This document shows, in pieces, positions 1,477 to 62,510 of a stretch of DNA of 64,000 nt (its first letter is position 1; every line of letters begins with the position of its first letter). The stretch is from the NCBI GenBank assembly GCA_016186495.1, contig JACPLO010000002.1, forward strand, positions 6,857 through 70,856, in the 5' to 3' direction. The notes beneath the pieces were generated by a model. It saw only the letters and a program-made list of their open reading frames with translations. It had not been told where the DNA came from and ran no database searches. Source of the DNA: Candidatus Niyogibacteria bacterium. Lineage in GTDB: Bacteria > Patescibacteriota > Minisyncoccia > JACROR01. Made by a program: the position numbers and the translations under genes.

Positions 1477-3186
1477 ATGGATATTCGATTTGCTGACCTT
1501 CTCGTGGAGAAAAATATAATCTCCGGAGAAGAATTAAATAAAATAAAACAAGAAGCGGCTTCCCGAAGCGTTCCTTTAGAGGATATTCTTTTGGAAAAAA
1601 AAATACCGGAGATTGAAATTTTAAAATCTAAAAGCGAAATTTTGGGAGCGCCGATCATATCTTTAAAAAAAGGTAAAATTCCTTTTGATGTTTTAAAATT
1701 AGTGCCGGAAGAATCCGCCAAACATTATCGGTTTATTCCTTTTGCCGTCAGCGAAGGCGTTTTAGAAGTGGGAATGGTGGATCCGAATGACATCATCGCC
1801 CGGGAAGCTTTGAATTTTATTTCCGCCAAGATTAATATGCCGTATAAGATTTTTTTAATCAGCAAATCTGATTTTACGGCGGTGTTTGAAGATTATAAAA
1901 GTTTGGGCGGCGAAGTAACCCAGGCGTTGGGAGAATTGGAAAGTATGCTGATAGAAGCGGAAAAATCAATGCCGAAAGAGGCGGAAAAGGTTTTGGAATT
2001 CGTTGAAGAAACGCCGGTTATTAAAGTGGTGGCGGTGATGCTCCGCCATGCCGCGGAAGGAAACGCTTCTGATATCCACATTGAACCCCAGCGCGATCAT
2101 TTAAGAATAAGATTCAGAGTGGACGGCATTCTTCATACAAGTTTAGTTTTACCTCTTAAGGTTCATGAGGCGATCGTTTCCCGCATTAAAATTTTAACCA
2201 ATATGCAGCTTGACGAGAAACGGAAGCCGCAAGACGGCCGGTTTTCCGCCAGTATTGAGAAAAGGCAAATTGATTTTAGAGTTTCCACTTTCCCCACTTT
2301 TTTCGGAGAAAAAGTCGTTATCAGGATTTTGGATGTTGAAAAAGGAATAAAAACGCTTGAGGAAGCCGGATTTTCAGGAAATAATCTGGCAGAAATTAAA
2401 AAGGCGCTTGATCGCCCTTACGGATTGATTTTAATTACCGGTCCGACCGGTTCGGGTAAAACCACCACGCTTTACGCGATGCTTCAGATTTTAAATGAAG
2501 AGGGAAGTAATGTGGTAAGTTTGGAAGATCCGGTGGAATATAACGTGGAAGGAGTCAATCAATCCCAAGTAAAGCCGGAGATCAGTTATAATTTTGCCAA
2601 TGGCTTGCGTTCAATTTTACGCCAAGATCCGGATGTGATTATGGTGGGCGAAATAAGAGATAAAGAGACAGCCCAGCTGGCTATTCATGCGGCTTTAACC
2701 GGCCATTTGGTTCTTTCCACTTTGCATACCAATTCGGCCACGGGCGTGATTCCTCGTTTGATTGATATGGGCGTTGATTCTTATTTAATCGCTCCTACTC
2801 TTGTTTTAGCGATGGCTCAAAGGTTATCCAGAACTCTCTGTCCGGAATCGCGGAAAGAAATTCCGGCTGCCGGAAAAATAAAAGAAATTCTGGAAAAAGA
2901 AATGGCGGAAATTCCTTTGGAAATTAAGAAGAGCATAAAAATACCTTCAAAAATTTATCAAGCAATGCCTTCTGCTTCTTGCCCTAAAGGCACGAAGGGA
3001 CGCATCGCGATCAGCGAAGTTATCGCGATGACGCCGGCGCTGGAAAAAGCCATTCTTTCTGACCCGACTGAACCTAATATTATGAAAGCGGCGCGCCAGC
3101 AGGGAATGATTAAAATGCGCGAAGACGGAATTTTAAAGGTTTTGGAAGGAAAAATCGGGCTTGAAGAATTAACGGAAATTATTTAA
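1477..3186 (+). CDS. pilB: Type IV pilus assembly ATPase PilB/GspE
   Basis: Walker A motif GPTGSGKTTT, GspE N-terminal domain, and a C-terminal Cys cluster. 569 aa. Confidence 0.9.
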   Translation: MDIRFADLLVEKNIISGEELNKIKQEAASRSVPLEDILLEKKIPEIEILKSKSEILGAPIISLKKGKIPFDVLKLVPEESAKHYRFIPFAVSEGVLEVGMVDPNDIIAREALNFISAKINMPYKIFLISKSDFTAVFEDYKSLGGEVTQALGELESMLIEAEKSMPKEAEKVLEFVEETPVIKVVAVMLRHAAEGNASDIHIEPQRDHLRIRFRVDGILHTSLVLPLKVHEAIVSRIKILTNMQLDEKRKPQDGRFSASIEKRQIDFRVSTFPTFFGEKVVIRILDVEKGIKTLEEAGFSGNNLAEIKKALDRPYGLILITGPTGSGKTTTLYAMLQILNEEGSNVVSLEDPVEYNVEGVNQSQVKPEISYNFANGLRSILRQDPDVIMVGEIRDKETAQLAIHAALTGHLVLSTLHTNSATGVIPRLIDMGVDSYLIAPTLVLAMAQRLSRTLCPESRKEIPAAGKIKEILEKEMAEIPLEIKKSIKIPSKIYQAMPSASCPKGTKGRIAISEVIAMTPALEKAILSDPTEPNIMKAARQQGMIKMREDGILKVLEGKIGLEELTEII

Positions 3187-56699: not shown

Positions 56700-57173
56700 A
56701 TGGCTTTAAATGTTATTTTAGAGAGAATTTTATATTTTTTTATTTTGATTTTTGGAATTTTTATTTTGCCTTGGCCGGCGTTATTTGGATTTTTTTCGTA
56801 TTTAATAGCGCGTTTTTCCTGGGCGTTTGAATTAATTATCGTCGGCATAGTGTTGGACGCTTTCAGCGGTTTGCCTTTCGGTTTTTTTTCTTTTTTATTT
56901 TTAGTAAGTTTATTGGCGATAGAATTTTTAAGATCGTTTTTTTATGAACAAGGATTTTATGTCATTCTTATCCGGGGGTTGGCGGCAATATCGGTTTTTT
57001 TTATTCTGGAAACGGCATTTTTCGGAATTTTTCAGGGAGCCGCTGTTTATGGAAACTTTGGATTTTGGAAAGCGTTATTTTTCAGTTATTTGACGGCTTT
57101 GATTGTTTTGTTTTCAGCTTTAATTTTTCATTTGATTATTTCTTATGCGGCAAAGAAAGAAAATTTTTTCTAA
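56700..57173 (+). CDS. mreD: Rod shape-determining protein MreD
   Basis: Polytopic small membrane protein between mreC and pbp2. Confidence 0.62.
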   Translation: MALNVILERILYFFILIFGIFILPWPALFGFFSYLIARFSWAFELIIVGIVLDAFSGLPFGFFSFLFLVSLLAIEFLRSFFYEQGFYVILIRGLAAISVFFILETAFFGIFQGAAVYGNFGFWKALFFSYLTALIVLFSALIFHLIISYAAKKENFF

Positions 57174-58857
57174 AAAAGACATATCTCCCGACGAAATATT
57201 TTTAGACGCCAAAAATATGCCGAATTTCAGCCGGGAAAGTTTTGAGGGAATAATGGAAAAAGCCATTATTTCCGCCAACGCTTGGGTAATGACGGCGGTT
57301 TTCGGATTGGTTTTAGCGGTTATGTTTTTGAAAGTAGGTATTCTTCAGATCAGCCAAGGAGAAATGTTTTATCAGAGAGCTAAGGAAAATCGTTTGCATT
57401 TAATGTCCCTTTTTCCGGAAAGAGGAGTAATTTATGATCGGCGCGGCCTGGAGTTGGCCCGGAATGAAAATTTTTCCAATGAAATTATCCGCGTTTACGC
57501 TGATTTGCCCGGTTTGTCGCATCTTTTAGGATATATGGGTTTTCTTTCAGAAGAAGAATTAAAAGAAGGAAATTTTGATCGGCAGTCTAAATACGGCCGG
57601 GCGGGGCTGGAAAAAGGGCTGGATAATTTTTTAAGAGGAAAAGAAGGGCAGCGTTTGGTGGAAGTTGATTCTTTAGGCAAAATAGTTTCGGAAAGTATTC
57701 AACGAGCGCCGGAAAATGGAGCTAATATCACGCTTAGCATTGACGCCGAGATGCAGTCAAAACTTTTTGAGAAAATTCAAAATACCGCCCAAGACCGAGG
57801 GTTTAAAGGGGGAGCGGGAATTGTAATGGATTCTCAAAACGGCGAGATTTTAGCGATGACCAGTTGGCCGGAATACGATCCTAACGCTTTTTCAAAAGGA
57901 GAAGCTGAAAAATTGCCTTTTTTCTTGAATAATGAGGAAAAACCGCTTTTTTTTAGGGCAATTTCCGGACTTTATTCGCCGGGTTCCTCGATTAAACCAG
58001 TTATCGCTTTAGCGGCTTTAAAAGAGGGAGTGATTGATAAGGACCATTCTATTTTCAGCGCGGGAAGCATTTCTGTGGCTAATCCTTACGATCCCGGCAA
58101 GAAATCCGTGTTTTACGATTGGAAAGCGCATGGCTGGGTGAATCTTGAAAAAGCGCTGGCGGTTTCATCAAATGTTTATTTTTACGCGATTGGCGGCGGT
58201 TTTGAAGAAATCAGCGGCCTTGGCGTTTCGCGCCTTAAAAAATATTTTGAAATGTTCGGTTTGGGGAAAAAGACCGGGCTTGAATTTTTGCCGGAAGAGG
58301 AAGGGTTTATTCCAAGCCCGGATTGGAAAGAAAAATATTTTTCAGACAAAATTTGGCGCTTGGGAGACACTTATAATTTAAGCATCGGCCAAGGATGGCT
58401 TGAGGTTACTCCGCTTCAAATGGCGGTCGTGACTTCAATCATCAGCCAAAATGGCAAAAAAATTAAACCCCATTTGGTAAAAGAGATGATTTTTACCGAT
58501 AAAAAGAATGTTCCTTTGCCGTTAAGTTTTGAGAAAATTGATATTGAAGAAAAATATTTTAAAATTGTTAAAGAAGGAATGAAGATGGCCGTGGAAGAAG
58601 GAACCGCAAAAGCGCTTTCCGGTTTAAGGGCAGAGATAGCGGCTAAAACCGGCACAGCCCAAATCGGAAGCAATAGGGTGGATTCCTGGCTTGTCGCTTT
58701 CGCGCCTTATGATAATCCTCGGCTGGTTTTAACCATAGTTTTGGAAGGAGGAAACGCCAATAATTTAATAGGCGCTCCTTTTGCGGCTAAGCAATTTTTT
58801 GAGTGGCTGATTTTAAATCGTCCCGAATATCTGGCTGTTGATAACGGGATTGACTGA
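57145..58857 (+). CDS. mrdA: Penicillin-binding protein 2 (elongasome transpeptidase)
   Basis: SSIK (SxxK), SSN and KTGT motifs, with an N-terminal TM. Confidence 0.88.
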   Translation: MRQRKKIFSKKDISPDEIFLDAKNMPNFSRESFEGIMEKAIISANAWVMTAVFGLVLAVMFLKVGILQISQGEMFYQRAKENRLHLMSLFPERGVIYDRRGLELARNENFSNEIIRVYADLPGLSHLLGYMGFLSEEELKEGNFDRQSKYGRAGLEKGLDNFLRGKEGQRLVEVDSLGKIVSESIQRAPENGANITLSIDAEMQSKLFEKIQNTAQDRGFKGGAGIVMDSQNGEILAMTSWPEYDPNAFSKGEAEKLPFFLNNEEKPLFFRAISGLYSPGSSIKPVIALAALKEGVIDKDHSIFSAGSISVANPYDPGKKSVFYDWKAHGWVNLEKALAVSSNVYFYAIGGGFEEISGLGVSRLKKYFEMFGLGKKTGLEFLPEEEGFIPSPDWKEKYFSDKIWRLGDTYNLSIGQGWLEVTPLQMAVVTSIISQNGKKIKPHLVKEMIFTDKKNVPLPLSFEKIDIEEKYFKIVKEGMKMAVEEGTAKALSGLRAEIAAKTGTAQIGSNRVDSWLVAFAPYDNPRLVLTIVLEGGNANNLIGAPFAAKQFFEWLILNRPEYLAVDNGID

Positions 58858-59468: not shown

Positions 59469-60944
59469 GTGAATAGTTTTGAAGAAATTCGCCAAGGGCG
59501 GATTAAAAAATTAAACGAATTGAAAAAGGCGGGGCAAGAGCCGTTTCCGGCGGAAGTTCCCGAAATTTTATCTTTGGAAGAAATTCAAAGTTCTTTTAAT
59601 AAATTGAAAGCCAAGAAAAAGCCGTTTTGGGCCGCGGGGCGATTAATGGCGTGCCGCGAGCACGGCGGATTGCTTTTTGCCGATCTTTATGACGGAACCG
59701 TTAAAATGCAGATTTGTTTTAGAAAAGACGATTTGTCGGAAGAATTGTTCAAAATTTTTAAAGATCAAGTTGATATCGGCGATTTTATTTTAATTGAAGG
59801 AAAACCTTTTTTAACGAAAAAGAAAGAAAGAACTCTGGCGGTAAGCGCTTGGCGGATTTTATCCAAGAGTTTGAGGCCGCTGCCGGAAAAATGGCACGGC
59901 CTTCAGGATGTGGAAGAAAGATACCGCCGCCGATATCTTGATCTTTTAATGAATGATGAAATTAAAAAAAGATTTTTAGCGCGGTCAAAAATAATCAGTG
60001 AAACGAGAAATTTTTTGGAAGAGAACGGCTATTTGGAAGTGGAAACGCCGATCCTTCAGCCGCTGGCCGGAGGAGCCGCGGCCGTTCCTTTTAAAACCCA
60101 TCATCAGGCGCTGGATATTGATCTTTATTTAAGAATCGCGCCGGAACTTTATTTAAAAAAACTTTTAGTGGGAGGCCTTAACAAAATTTATGAGCTTGGC
60201 AGGAATTTCAGGAATGAAGGAATAGACGCGACGCATAATCCGGAATTTACCATGCTGGAATTTTATGAAGCTTATTCTGACGCGAAAAAACAGCGCGTTT
60301 TCGTGGAAAAAATGATCAAGCATCTTGTTAAAAAAGTTTTGAAAAAGAATTATTTGGAATACGGCGGAATAAAAATAGATTTTTCTCAAAAATTTTCGGT
60401 GATTTCTTATTTTGATCTTTTGAAAAAATATGCTTTGATTTTGGATCCAAAATCAGCTTCAAATTATGATTTGGCGCTGATTGCCAAACGGTTGGGCGTG
60501 GAGGCGGCTGATTCCGACGCTAAAGATAAAATTATGGATAATATTTATAAAAAAATTTGCCGGCCGCGGCTTATTCAGCCAATTTTCATTATTGATTATC
60601 CGGCGGAATTTTCTCCTTTTGCCAAAATAAATCCGGAAAAGCCCGAATTTATAGATCGTTTTCAGCTGGTCATCGGCGGATTGGAATTGGTTAACGCTTT
60701 TTCAGAACTTAATGATCCTTTGGAACAAAGGGAAAGATTTTTAGAACAGGATAGAAAAAGAAAAGAAGGGGAGGCGGATGTTTCGCCGAGCGACGAAGAA
60801 TATCTGGAAGCGATGGAATACGGCATGCCGCCGGCTGGCGGCGTAGGCATCGGCTTTGACCGTTTAATGATGCTTTTGACCGGAGCTCAAAATATCCGGG
60901 AAGTGATTTTATTCCCCACATTAAGGCCAAAACCCTCTCACTAA
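59469..60944 (+). CDS. lysS: Lysine--tRNA ligase (class II)
   Basis: OB-fold N-terminus and class II motifs 1-3 (FRNEG, GGLE..., GIGIDRL). Confidence 0.92.
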   Translation: MNSFEEIRQGRIKKLNELKKAGQEPFPAEVPEILSLEEIQSSFNKLKAKKKPFWAAGRLMACREHGGLLFADLYDGTVKMQICFRKDDLSEELFKIFKDQVDIGDFILIEGKPFLTKKKERTLAVSAWRILSKSLRPLPEKWHGLQDVEERYRRRYLDLLMNDEIKKRFLARSKIISETRNFLEENGYLEVETPILQPLAGGAAAVPFKTHHQALDIDLYLRIAPELYLKKLLVGGLNKIYELGRNFRNEGIDATHNPEFTMLEFYEAYSDAKKQRVFVEKMIKHLVKKVLKKNYLEYGGIKIDFSQKFSVISYFDLLKKYALILDPKSASNYDLALIAKRLGVEAADSDAKDKIMDNIYKKICRPRLIQPIFIIDYPAEFSPFAKINPEKPEFIDRFQLVIGGLELVNAFSELNDPLEQRERFLEQDRKRKEGEADVSPSDEEYLEAMEYGMPPAGGVGIGFDRLMMLLTGAQNIREVILFPTLRPKPSH

Positions 60945-60997
60945 TAAAACTATTATTTTTATTCAACGTTAAATTTTATCATTGCCGCGTAATTTTA

Positions 60998-61036
60998 ACC
61001 TCCGCACTTATGTATAAGTGCGGAGGTTTCTTTATT
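60998..61036 (+). terminator. Rho-independent terminator after lysS
   Basis: Perfect 13-bp stem acctccgcactta/taagtgcggaggt with loop tgta, then ttctttatt. Confidence 0.75.
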
Positions 61037-61051
61037 AGTGTGGTGGTAATG

Positions 61052-61145
61052 TTTTCCACAGGGGGGTATTGGAAAATTATTTGAAGTGGTATAAACTACT
61101 AACATAGTGGTAAATTGTGGATAAATCTGTGGATAGTGTGGATAA
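61052..61145. promoter_or_regulatory. DnaA-box cluster (TTATCCACA-type) upstream of mraZ
   Basis: TGTGGATAA at 61116-61124 and 61137-61145 are perfect reverse complements of TTATCCACA. TGTGGATAG at 61128-61136 has 1 mismatch. TTTTCCACA at 61052-61060 has 1 mismatch and is forward-oriented. There are further degenerate AGTGGTAAA copies. Confidence 0.6.
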
Positions 61146-61166: not shown

Positions 61167-61601
61167 ATGCTAATTGGTGAATTTTTACATACTATAGACG
61201 CTAAAAAACGGATTTCTTTGCCGGCAAAATTCAGAAAAGAGATCGGTAAAGGAGCGGTCATCACCAAAGGTTTGGATAAATGCCTTTTTGTTTACCCGGT
61301 TTCTGAATGGAAAAATTTTGCCGAATGGTTAAGCGCTTTGCCGATGGGACAAAAAGACAAAAGAGATTTGACGCGGATTTTTTTAGCCAGCGCCTCGGAA
61401 GTGGAAAGCGATAAATTGGGGCGGATTTTAATTCCGGATTATTTGAAAAAATACGCCGAATTAGAAGAGAAAGCGGTAATTTGCGGAATGTACAAACGTT
61501 TGGAAATTTGGAATGAAAAAAGATGGGAAAAATATCGGGAAGAAACGGAAAAGCAAGCTGATATTCTGGCGGAAAAAATGGGAGAAATGGGAATAGCTTA
61601 A
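61167..61601 (+). CDS. mraZ: Transcriptional regulator MraZ
   Basis: Two MraZ repeats with DxxxR motifs (IDAKKRISLPAKFR / KLGRILIPDYL). Confidence 0.9.
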   Translation: MLIGEFLHTIDAKKRISLPAKFRKEIGKGAVITKGLDKCLFVYPVSEWKNFAEWLSALPMGQKDKRDLTRIFLASASEVESDKLGRILIPDYLKKYAELEEKAVICGMYKRLEIWNEKRWEKYREETEKQADILAEKMGEMGIA

Positions 61602-61604
61602 TTT

Positions 61605-62510
61605 ATGACCCATACCCCGGTTCTTTTAAAGGAAGTCGTAGAATTATTGAATGTTGAAAACGGCAAAGTATTCGTGGATGCCACGGCTGACGGCGGAGGC
61701 CATCTTCAGGCAATTTTAGAGAAACTTCCAAGAGACGGAAAAATTATCGGCTTGGATCAGGATGAAGAAATGATCGGCCGCTTGATAAAAAAATTCAATA
61801 AAAACAGCCGGCTGAAATTTATCACGGGGAATTTTAGAAATCTTGGCGATTTATTAAAAAATTACCAAGGGAAAATAGACGGCATTTTATACGATTTAGG
61901 CTTAAGTTCTTGGCAGCTTGAATTTTCCGGAAGAGGATTTTCTTTTCTTCGGGATGAACCGCTTCTAATGACCTTTAAAGCCGAGCTTGAACCTTTTGAT
62001 CTTACCGCGGAAAAAATTATCAATGATTGGAATAGAAAAGAGCTTGAAAATTTAATTAAAAAATACGGCGAGGAAAAATACGCGGCGCGAATAGTCGAGG
62101 CGATTATTGAAGCGAGAAAGAGAAAGAGAATAAGGAGAACCGGCGAATTGGCTGAAATTATTAAATTCGCAACGCCGGAAAATTATGAAAAAGGGCGCCT
62201 TCATCCCGCTACCCGCACTTTTCAAGCCTTGCGTCTCACAGTTAATGACGAGCTTAACGTTTTAAGCGAAGGGCTGGCGGCCGGTTGGGAGCTTTTGAAA
62301 AATGACGGGCGGCTGGCGGTTATTTCATTCCATTCGCTTGAAGATCGGATTGTTAAAAATTTTTTTAGAGATAAAAAACAGCAAGGAAAAGCGGAAATTC
62401 TGACCAAAAAACCGATTAGCCCTTTGCCGGAAGAAATCAGAGTTAATTTCCGTTCGCGTTCCGCCAAATTAAGAGTTGCCAAAAAATTACAATATGGCGC
62501 ATTTTATTAA
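61605..62510 (+). CDS. rsmH: 16S rRNA (cytosine1402-N4)-methyltransferase
   Basis: HTPVLLKEV...DATADGGGH SAM motif, downstream of mraZ. Confidence 0.9.
   Translation: MTHTPVLLKEVVELLNVENGKVFVDATADGGGHLQAILEKLPRDGKIIGLDQDEEMIGRLIKKFNKNSRLKFITGNFRNLGDLLKNYQGKIDGILYDLGLSSWQLEFSGRGFSFLRDEPLLMTFKAELEPFDLTAEKIINDWNRKELENLIKKYGEEKYAARIVEAIIEARKRKRIRRTGELAEIIKFATPENYEKGRLHPATRTFQALRLTVNDELNVLSEGLAAGWELLKNDGRLAVISFHSLEDRIVKNFFRDKKQQGKAEILTKKPISPLPEEIRVNFRSRSAKLRVAKKLQYGAFY

Follow-up and report, generated by a model that had tools for sequence, protein, structure and literature searches.

What does a dense cluster of DnaA-type boxes do at the head of a cell division operon? In the 64,000-nucleotide stretch of Patescibacteria DNA analysed here (the window, meaning the whole of this stretch), such boxes lie between lysS and mraZ, the gene that heads the cluster for cell wall and division genes (dcw, or mra). 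The initial annotation of this stretch had offered two readings, a replication origin (oriC) or a strongly DnaA-regulated promoter. The evidence presented below leans towards a composite operator of the mraZ promoter in a Parcubacteria-type genome, at which the sites of the division gene repressor MraZ and of the replication initiator DnaA would be interleaved. Judged from its sequence, the promoter is very likely bound by MraZ, and DnaA somewhat probably binds the same cluster. The proposal of a DnaA-regulated promoter thus survives and is strengthened by comparative data, although it had overlooked the MraZ-binding repeats, the main function known for direct GTGG repeats that precede mraZ.

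GTGG boxes upstream of mraZ are conserved among Patescibacteria

The window was compared with 80 species-level Patescibacteria mraZ loci (one genome per species), the MraZ proteins of which are 49-92% identical. For counts, the 20 kb upstream of mraZ was set against 441 kb of flanking DNA of the related loci, and alignments of 81 sequences were anchored on the GTGG embedded in the predicted promoter (position 0). The pair GTGG-N6-GTGG was found 5' of mraZ in 74/80 loci, each time on the coding strand, and hardly at all in other places. Relatives carry further GTGG boxes at +21/+31 or +31/+41 and often one more at +62/63, while the family to which the window belongs (L005-L016) has them at +21, +31, +43 and +52. 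Between the boxes that lack an ATA(A) continuation (plain boxes) the spacing in relatives is 10 bp (49 cases), 21 bp (28) or 31 bp (21). Other box clusters were absent from the 441 kb of flanking DNA, save at three loci (L032, L033 and L065) in which the mraZ cluster itself is displaced upstream. In these, the cluster lies 350-580 nt before mraZ, pushed there by an insertion of ~300-400 bp. The three inserts end in a similar GC-rich hairpin and are possibly a small mobile gene or element.

In the window, five direct GTGG cores are found at 61086, 61107, 61117, 61129 and 61138, and the direct boxes as a whole (61086-61145) lie 22-81 bp before the mraZ ATG at 61167. The four boxes named in the initial annotation, which begin at 61052, 61116, 61128 and 61137, were all recovered, as were its degenerate copies AGTGGTAAA and GGTGGTAAT (Table 1). 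The last three of the four are referred to here as D1 to D3. The spacing of 11-13 bp given there needs correction: start-to-start steps of the direct boxes are 10, 12 and 9 bp, preceded by a step of 21 bp from the GTGG at 61086. Exact 10-bp spacing is therefore seen in one adjacent pair (61107/61117), in partial agreement with the 10-bp period of known MraZ-binding repeats (MBRs). The helical phasing holds, as no box departs by more than about 1 bp from a 10.5-bp register. The same is true of the AT-rich setting, with a lysS-mraZ gap of 222 bp at 68% A+T against 58.8% for the window, and lysS, its terminator and mraZ were each confirmed.

Chance clustering had been named as what might undo the interpretation of these boxes. 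Shuffling the window 1000 times with its dinucleotides preserved never gave more than two boxes per 100 bp when up to one mismatch was allowed (0/1000 reach the four observed, two perfect and two with one mismatch, which fall within 94 bp), and a chance origin of the cluster was ruled out. Other near-matches in the window (5878/5890 and 35433), considered as members of a DnaA regulon, were rejected, being located inside open reading frames (ORFs) and present at chance frequency.

The encoded MraZ has retained the residues with which its homologs read DNA. In an alignment to the MraZ proteins of Mycoplasma genitalium (9qlr), solved in complex with DNA, and M. pneumoniae (1n0e), which is gap-free over these positions, the window protein keeps D11, K13, R15, D82 and R86 (two DXXXR motifs, DAKKR at 11-15 and DKLGR at 82-86). 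At its own promoter, MraZ recognizes 3-4 GTG(G/T) boxes in direct orientation, set apart by 6-nt spacers, and contacts them via K13, R15 and R86; in M. genitalium the site is AAAGTGT-N3 repeated and the transcription start lies inside box 1 (PMC12957436). In Bacillus subtilis, three GTGG[A/T]G repeats are needed for repression (bioRxiv 10.1101/2022.02.09.479790).

These observations bear on the possibility that the cluster belongs to DnaA alone, either as a DnaA-regulated promoter without MraZ or as a titrating cluster, like datA or the DnaA-box clusters of B. subtilis, that merely happens to precede mraZ. The density of perfect and near-perfect boxes would fit such a role, as would a spacing typical of DnaA arrays, and since perfect boxes occur at chance level elsewhere in ~500 kb of related DNA, the cluster would be among the few strong ones of a ~1-Mb genome. 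Yet the most widespread pairs, those of the 74/80 loci, lack the ATAA part (GTGGtgaaaaGTGGtgaat) and correspond to the MraZ site as published, the cluster is invariably linked to the mraZ promoter, where it overlaps the predicted -10 element and start, and the window encodes an intact MraZ. A role for DnaA without MraZ is therefore unlikely, and the constant association with this promoter points to transcriptional control rather than titration alone.

DnaA-type boxes form a second class

Two kinds of box can be told apart upstream of mraZ. Those in which ATA(A) follows GTGG have a T in front and A/C then T behind, and thereby form the DnaA 9-mer TGTGGATAA, with TGTGGATAAC as the flanked form. 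The remaining, plain boxes are A-rich before the core (aaaGTGG) and continue with [G/T][A/G]AA, like the MraZ site of Mollicutes. A T before GTGG goes together with ATAA after it (71/93 versus 88/291; p=7e-15, not corrected for phylogeny). As the consensus DnaA box read in this direction is TGTGGATAA, it necessarily includes the MraZ core GTGG. Of perfect TGTGGATAA boxes, the 20 kb upstream of mraZ contain 81 and the remaining 441 kb contain 9, a ~200-fold enrichment, and at least one is present in 50/80 loci.

The two classes differ in orientation, placement and spacing. Whereas the paired GTGG-N6-GTGG is never inverted upstream of mraZ, 10 of the 81 upstream 9-mers have the opposite orientation. 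The box 5' of the -35 element is mostly TTATCCACA or TTTTCCACA in the window family and is flipped to TGTGGATAA or TGTGTATAA in L006 and L007; its position drifts by ~6 bp among close relatives, while downstream boxes hold exact spacing. In addition, variants at the free position of TTATNCACA that abolish GTGG occupy homologous places, namely TGTGCATAA twice in L084 and TGTGAATAAC in L022 and L060. Between neighboring DnaA-type boxes at mraZ promoters, the spacing is 12 bp (30 cases), 11 bp (23), 9 bp (11), 10 bp (8) or 13 bp (0), with 20 bp (23) across a gap. For reference, 120 metagenome contigs from diverse bacteria with two perfect boxes 9-13 bp apart were collected, 16 of which have dnaA adjoining the boxes and none of which has mraZ. 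Here the spacings are 12 bp (60), 11 bp (46), 9 bp (31), 10 bp (8) and 13 bp (8). The distribution at mraZ promoters cannot be distinguished from that of the metagenome tandem boxes (p=0.14) and differs from the 10-bp spacing of plain boxes (p=6e-15). Based on this comparison, the steps of 12 and 9 bp in the window are typical of DnaA arrays and not of the MraZ period.

The dnaA contig with the lowest identity, L188, was followed as a lead to a dnaA gene of Patescibacteria and dropped, as its DnaA clusters with marine (TARA) sequences and not with those of the Candidate Phyla Radiation (CPR). At 2999-3021 of this contig, a tandem TGTGGATAACTTGTGGATAAC overlaps the annotated GTG start of dnaA and is identical to a pair far upstream of mraZ in L044.

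The predicted promoter and leader

The promoter was placed by alignment with relatives. The motif GTGG-NN-TAnnnT is present in 60/81 sequences, 49 of which also have a TTGACA-like -35 element 16-18 bp upstream, and the corresponding elements of the window (Table 1) predict a transcription start near 61104. With this placement the boxes would extend from the promoter spacer through the initial ~40 bp of the leader; relative to the predicted start, the four DnaA-type boxes would occupy -52 to +41.

Because three boxes lie inside the predicted 5' leader, the GUGGAUAA repeats might instead act in the mRNA, as a riboswitch, attenuator or protein-binding leader, or as a ribosome-binding site. In many relatives (e.g. 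L006, L012, L014, L034, L055 and L080) the last DnaA-type box abuts the start codon (GTGGATAACTATG), the usual place of a ribosome-binding site, so that the GGA of the box may also act as a weak Shine-Dalgarno element. In the window, however, the last box ends ~21-22 nt from the mraZ ATG, which has its own GGAAA. An Rfam search of the region matched no family, the predicted leader RNA folds like its shuffles (z=0.18), and boxes of the same type are found upstream of the promoter and inverted, outside of the transcript. An element acting at the RNA level is thus very improbable.

Table 1 Coordinates of the features at the mraZ locus of the window.
Feature	Positions	Strand	Remarks
lysS (class II lysyl-tRNA synthetase)	59469-60944	+	Upstream neighbor, context; Pfam tRNA-synt_2 1e-88 and anticodon oligonucleotide-binding (OB) domain
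lysS intrinsic terminator	60997-61036	+	15-bp perfect-stem hairpin at 60997-61028, then T run
GTGGTGGTAAT	61040-61050	+	Two degenerate, overlapping GTGG boxes; includes GGTGGTAAT at 61042-61050
Upstream DnaA-type box TTTTCCACA	61052-61060	TTTTCCACA on +, GTGG core on -	Center ~48 bp before predicted start, 8 bp 5' of predicted -35
Predicted -35 TTGGAA	61069-61074	+	Relatives have TTGACn at the aligned position; 17 bp to predicted -10
Promoter-embedded MraZ-type box aaGTGG	GTGG 61086-61089	+	In spacer, 2 bp before predicted -10; anchor position 0
Predicted -10 TAAACT	61092-61097	+	By alignment; alternative extended -10 TGgTATAAA at 61087-61095
MraZ-type box AGTGGTAAA	61106-61114	+	GTGG at 61107, +21 from promoter box
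Box D1 TGTGGATAA	61116-61124	+	Perfect DnaA-box complement; GTGG 61117 at +31, in MraZ register (shared box)
Box D2 TGTGGATAG	61128-61136	+	One mismatch; 12 bp after D1
Box D3 TGTGGATAA	61137-61145	+	Perfect, next base C; 9 bp after D2, 21 bp after D1
mraZ	61167-61601	+	Pfam MraZ 1e-34; presumed repressor acting on the GTGG boxes
rsmH (mraW)	61605-62510	+	Pfam Methyltransf_5 1e-93; the dcw operon's second gene

MraZ alone or MraZ together with DnaA

Several observations weigh against DnaA as a second ligand. The DnaA-type boxes (D) are in register with the plain, MraZ-type boxes (M), with M-D and D-M spacings of mostly 10 bp, and even far-upstream boxes are phased (36/38), so the helical phasing of all boxes could be explained by a single MraZ assembly. 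Common one-mismatch variants upstream of mraZ are TGGGGATAA (A7 to C; 22 cases) and AGTGGATAA (A9 to T; 16 cases), and the middle boxes of many relatives (GGGGATAAC and ATGGGATAAC) would be poor DnaA sites by themselves. In the DnaA matrix of B. subtilis, positions 7-9 are the strictest and position 6 may vary (PMC4447404 Table S3). The upstream boxes agree with this matrix at positions 1-5 and 8 and disagree at 6, 7 and 9, position 6 being invariant at mraZ promoters. The DnaA box of Patescibacteria was assumed from the general consensus, and the comparative statistics ignore shared ancestry. Finally, a simple sigma-70 consensus scan of the window returned no promoter at this site, where the promoter rests on alignment, and promoter, start site, binding by both proteins in Patescibacteria and the sign of regulation are all inferred from sequence.

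An operator for MraZ alone has to be considered, in which the TGTGGATAA boxes are bound by MraZ as well and resemble DnaA boxes through the shared GTGG core and a lineage preference of MraZ, or of bent DNA, for ATAA(C) spacers. All boxes being direct and phased with the promoter-embedded box is in line with this explanation, as are the mostly 10-bp M-D and D-M spacings and the frequent TGGGGATAA and ATGGGATAAC, which keep a TGG/GGG core yet break the strictest DnaA positions. Altered spacing is also tolerated by MraZ in vitro (PMC12957436). On the other hand, the base contacts of MraZ are limited to a 3-4 bp core (PMC12957436) and leave the conserved 9-mer unexplained, including the covariation of the leading T with the trailing ATAA; the probability that the five extra positions agree with the DnaA consensus by mere chance is ~1e-3. 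Lone inverted 9-mers of drifting position are found upstream, the GTGC/GTGA variants suit TTATNCACA and not GTG(G/T), and the D-D spacing of 12, 11 and 9 bp avoids 10 bp and matches real DnaA arrays. MraZ as the sole ligand is therefore a possible but less likely explanation. Two superposed constraints, GG being kept for MraZ and A-T-A-A for DnaA, would fit the mixed pattern of variants, and a composite operator remains the reading towards which we lean.

The boxes are not at a replication origin

Consensus DnaA boxes clustered between genes, in a somewhat AT-rich setting, are also what an origin at the head of the dcw cluster would offer. However, GC skew, which the initial annotation had suggested as a check, is +0.18 immediately to the left and +0.21 to the right of the boxes and positive in all 32 2-kb bins of the 64 kb. 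Long ORFs likewise do not switch strand at the boxes, 61 of the 69 being located on the forward and 8 on the reverse strand. No match to a DnaA query was obtained by tblastn in the window, as the initial annotation had noted, or in the 80 related mraZ loci. This negative is meaningful because the same query detects dnaA (39-58% identity) in the 16 unrelated metagenome contigs. An unwinding tract is also absent: no AT run of at least 13 bp flanks the boxes, pure A/T runs next to them reach 10 bp at most, and 40-bp windows around them are 57-70% AT. The 13-bp A/T run at 60951 and the only 88% AT stretch lie before the lysS terminator.

Related loci agree with this picture. In 53/57 of those with enough flank, mraZ has positive skew to its left and to its right, and in the sole complete genome of the set (CP175956.1, 1.29 Mb; locus L057) mraZ is located at about 0.90 Mb. 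As skew and gene direction are the same on both sides, with neither dnaA in the window nor an unwinding tract, the boxes do not mark an origin, and oriC at this place is left with a negligible probability. The window in its entirety belongs to a single replichore, with transcription and replication running co-directionally, and the origin is located beyond the left end of the window.

Proposed regulation and its significance

At a composite operator, an MraZ oligomer would assemble on one helix face along the direct GTGG boxes at 61086, 61107 and 61117 (0, +21 and +31) and would shut its own promoter by covering the -10 and start region, which is the known autoregulatory loop. DnaA would bind head-to-tail to D1-D3 (61116-61145) in the early leader and to the inverted box at 61052 just 5' of the -35 element, and would lower, or less likely raise, dcw transcription according to replication status. 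That DnaA boxes lie downstream of the predicted start suggests that plentiful active DnaA would repress the promoter, in the same direction as reported for B. subtilis. The D1-D3 side and the 61052 box form a 13-bp imperfect inverted repeat with arms 76 bp apart, which would allow looping. As D1 belongs to both sets of sites, MraZ and DnaA would compete or cooperate there. Such an arrangement probably ties the expression of division genes to replication status.

Whether this extends across the Patescibacteria, with the division operon promoter hard-wired to MraZ and DnaA by interleaved sites that share GTGG and at least one box (D1) serving both, is evenly balanced. If true, the initiator of replication and the repressor of division would meet on one DNA face, in competition or in cooperation, and this would be a direct, possibly the main, coupling of replication initiation status to division in minimal-genome bacteria. 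Patescibacteria have tiny genomes with few regulators and mostly resist cultivation. Replication-division coupling in bacteria is still poorly understood, and perfect DnaA boxes built into the MraZ operator phylum-wide offer a concrete hypothesis for it. There are also practical consequences: on CPR genomes, tools for origin prediction can be led astray by clusters of consensus DnaA boxes before mraZ, and searches for MraZ sites by GTGG will also catch DnaA boxes. A literature search turned up no account of an interleaving of consensus DnaA boxes with MraZ boxes, nor any report of MraZ sites in the CPR.

Neighboring features

In the window, GTGGTGGTAAT lies between the lysS terminator and the upstream DnaA-type box. 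It is not kept in the closest relative (L005), and its function is therefore doubtful. Genes for a penicillin-binding protein (PBP) transpeptidase and a Mur ligase come next after mraZ-rsmH on Logan contigs. A PBP2/FtsI-type transpeptidase gene is present at 57145-58857 of the window, upstream of greA-lysS and outside the dcw cluster, and a second transpeptidase gene is found inside the cluster after mraZ-rsmH-ftsL-like (Logan contig L001, 1720-3471), placing two class B PBPs within about 8 kb. The identical MraZ was encountered only on Logan contigs of at most 7.8 kb, and the organism occurs in the samples SRR4343428 and SRR12113424. All four public Logan contigs with this MraZ (L001-L004, from four runs) begin at the T of D1 (61116), 51 nt before the ATG. 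These assembly breaks inside the box array suggest a repeated k-mer or strain-level variation, in copy number or upstream neighbor, at this place.

Additional elements accompany the boxes in some relatives. In 11 distantly related loci (L019, L022, L039, L050, L055, L058, L061, L064, L066, L082 and L083), a hairpin conserved in structure and also in sequence, AATGGCTT-N4-AAGCCATT followed by T's, is found ~125-220 nt 5' of mraZ, between far-upstream DnaA-type boxes and the mraZ promoter. Although this AATGGCTT/AAGCCATT hairpin is terminator-like, its conserved arms suggest a protein-binding palindrome. L072, L075 and L076 (also L064) have long leaders between boxes and ATG with 4-9 copies of TTCGTA/TACGAA, both direct and inverted (e.g. 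ttcgtaattcgtatattcgtagag), which may serve as another operator or as an RNA element peculiar to certain Moraniibacteriota. In L056 a tandem (tagcttat)n repeat takes this place instead.

Comparison with known systems

With oriC, datA and the DnaA-box clusters of other bacteria, the window shares several tandem consensus TTATCCACA boxes at spacings of 9, 11 and 12 bp. It differs from them by having no skew switch, unwinding element, dnaA/dnaN or divergent transcription, and by a cluster that is always coupled to one promoter.

The resemblance to MBRs, known as AAAGTG(T/G) x4 in M. genitalium, GTGG[A/T]G x3 in B. subtilis and TGGGN x3 in Escherichia coli, is closer. As in these systems, the boxes are located directly 5' of mraZ and overlap the predicted promoter and start, they have a GTGG core in direct orientation, a helical register of ~10 bp and A-rich bases before the plain boxes, and the cognate MraZ retains K13, R15 and R86. 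Unlike MBRs, the window boxes do not form a contiguous 10-10-10 array but lie at 0, +21, +31, +43 and +52, from the promoter spacer into the leader, and three of them, together with the inverted upstream one, carry the full 9-bp DnaA consensus at spacings of 12 and 9 bp, a feature for which the literature search gave no report on known MBRs.

For DnaA at this operon, B. subtilis provides the precedent. DnaA binds the yllB(mraZ)-ftsL promoter and reduces expression from it in response to a block of replication, according to Goranov 2005 as cited in PMC2533591, PMC8203912 and bioRxiv 10.1101/2022.02.09.479790. The same site is absent from the eight regions described as stably DnaA-bound in vivo by chromatin affinity precipitation on microarrays (ChAP-chip) in the relevant passages of PMC2533591, and yllB, mraZ and ftsL appear nowhere in the text or supplements of an in vitro binding study (PMC4447404). 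The B. subtilis site therefore appears to be weak. According to a 2021 review, a major DnaA-dependent transcriptional effect on cytokinesis timing has been demonstrated for no species (PMC8203912). The head of the yllB(mraZ)-ylxA-ftsL-pbpB operon is the same place that was proposed as DnaA-bound, with the same link between replication and division, while in the window the boxes are perfect, multiple, interleaved with MraZ boxes and conserved in the phylum, with DnaA binding predicted from sequence. Taken together, the MraZ operator is of a known kind and a single precedent exists for an mra operon controlled by DnaA, while the interleaving of DnaA and MraZ boxes would be a new variation.

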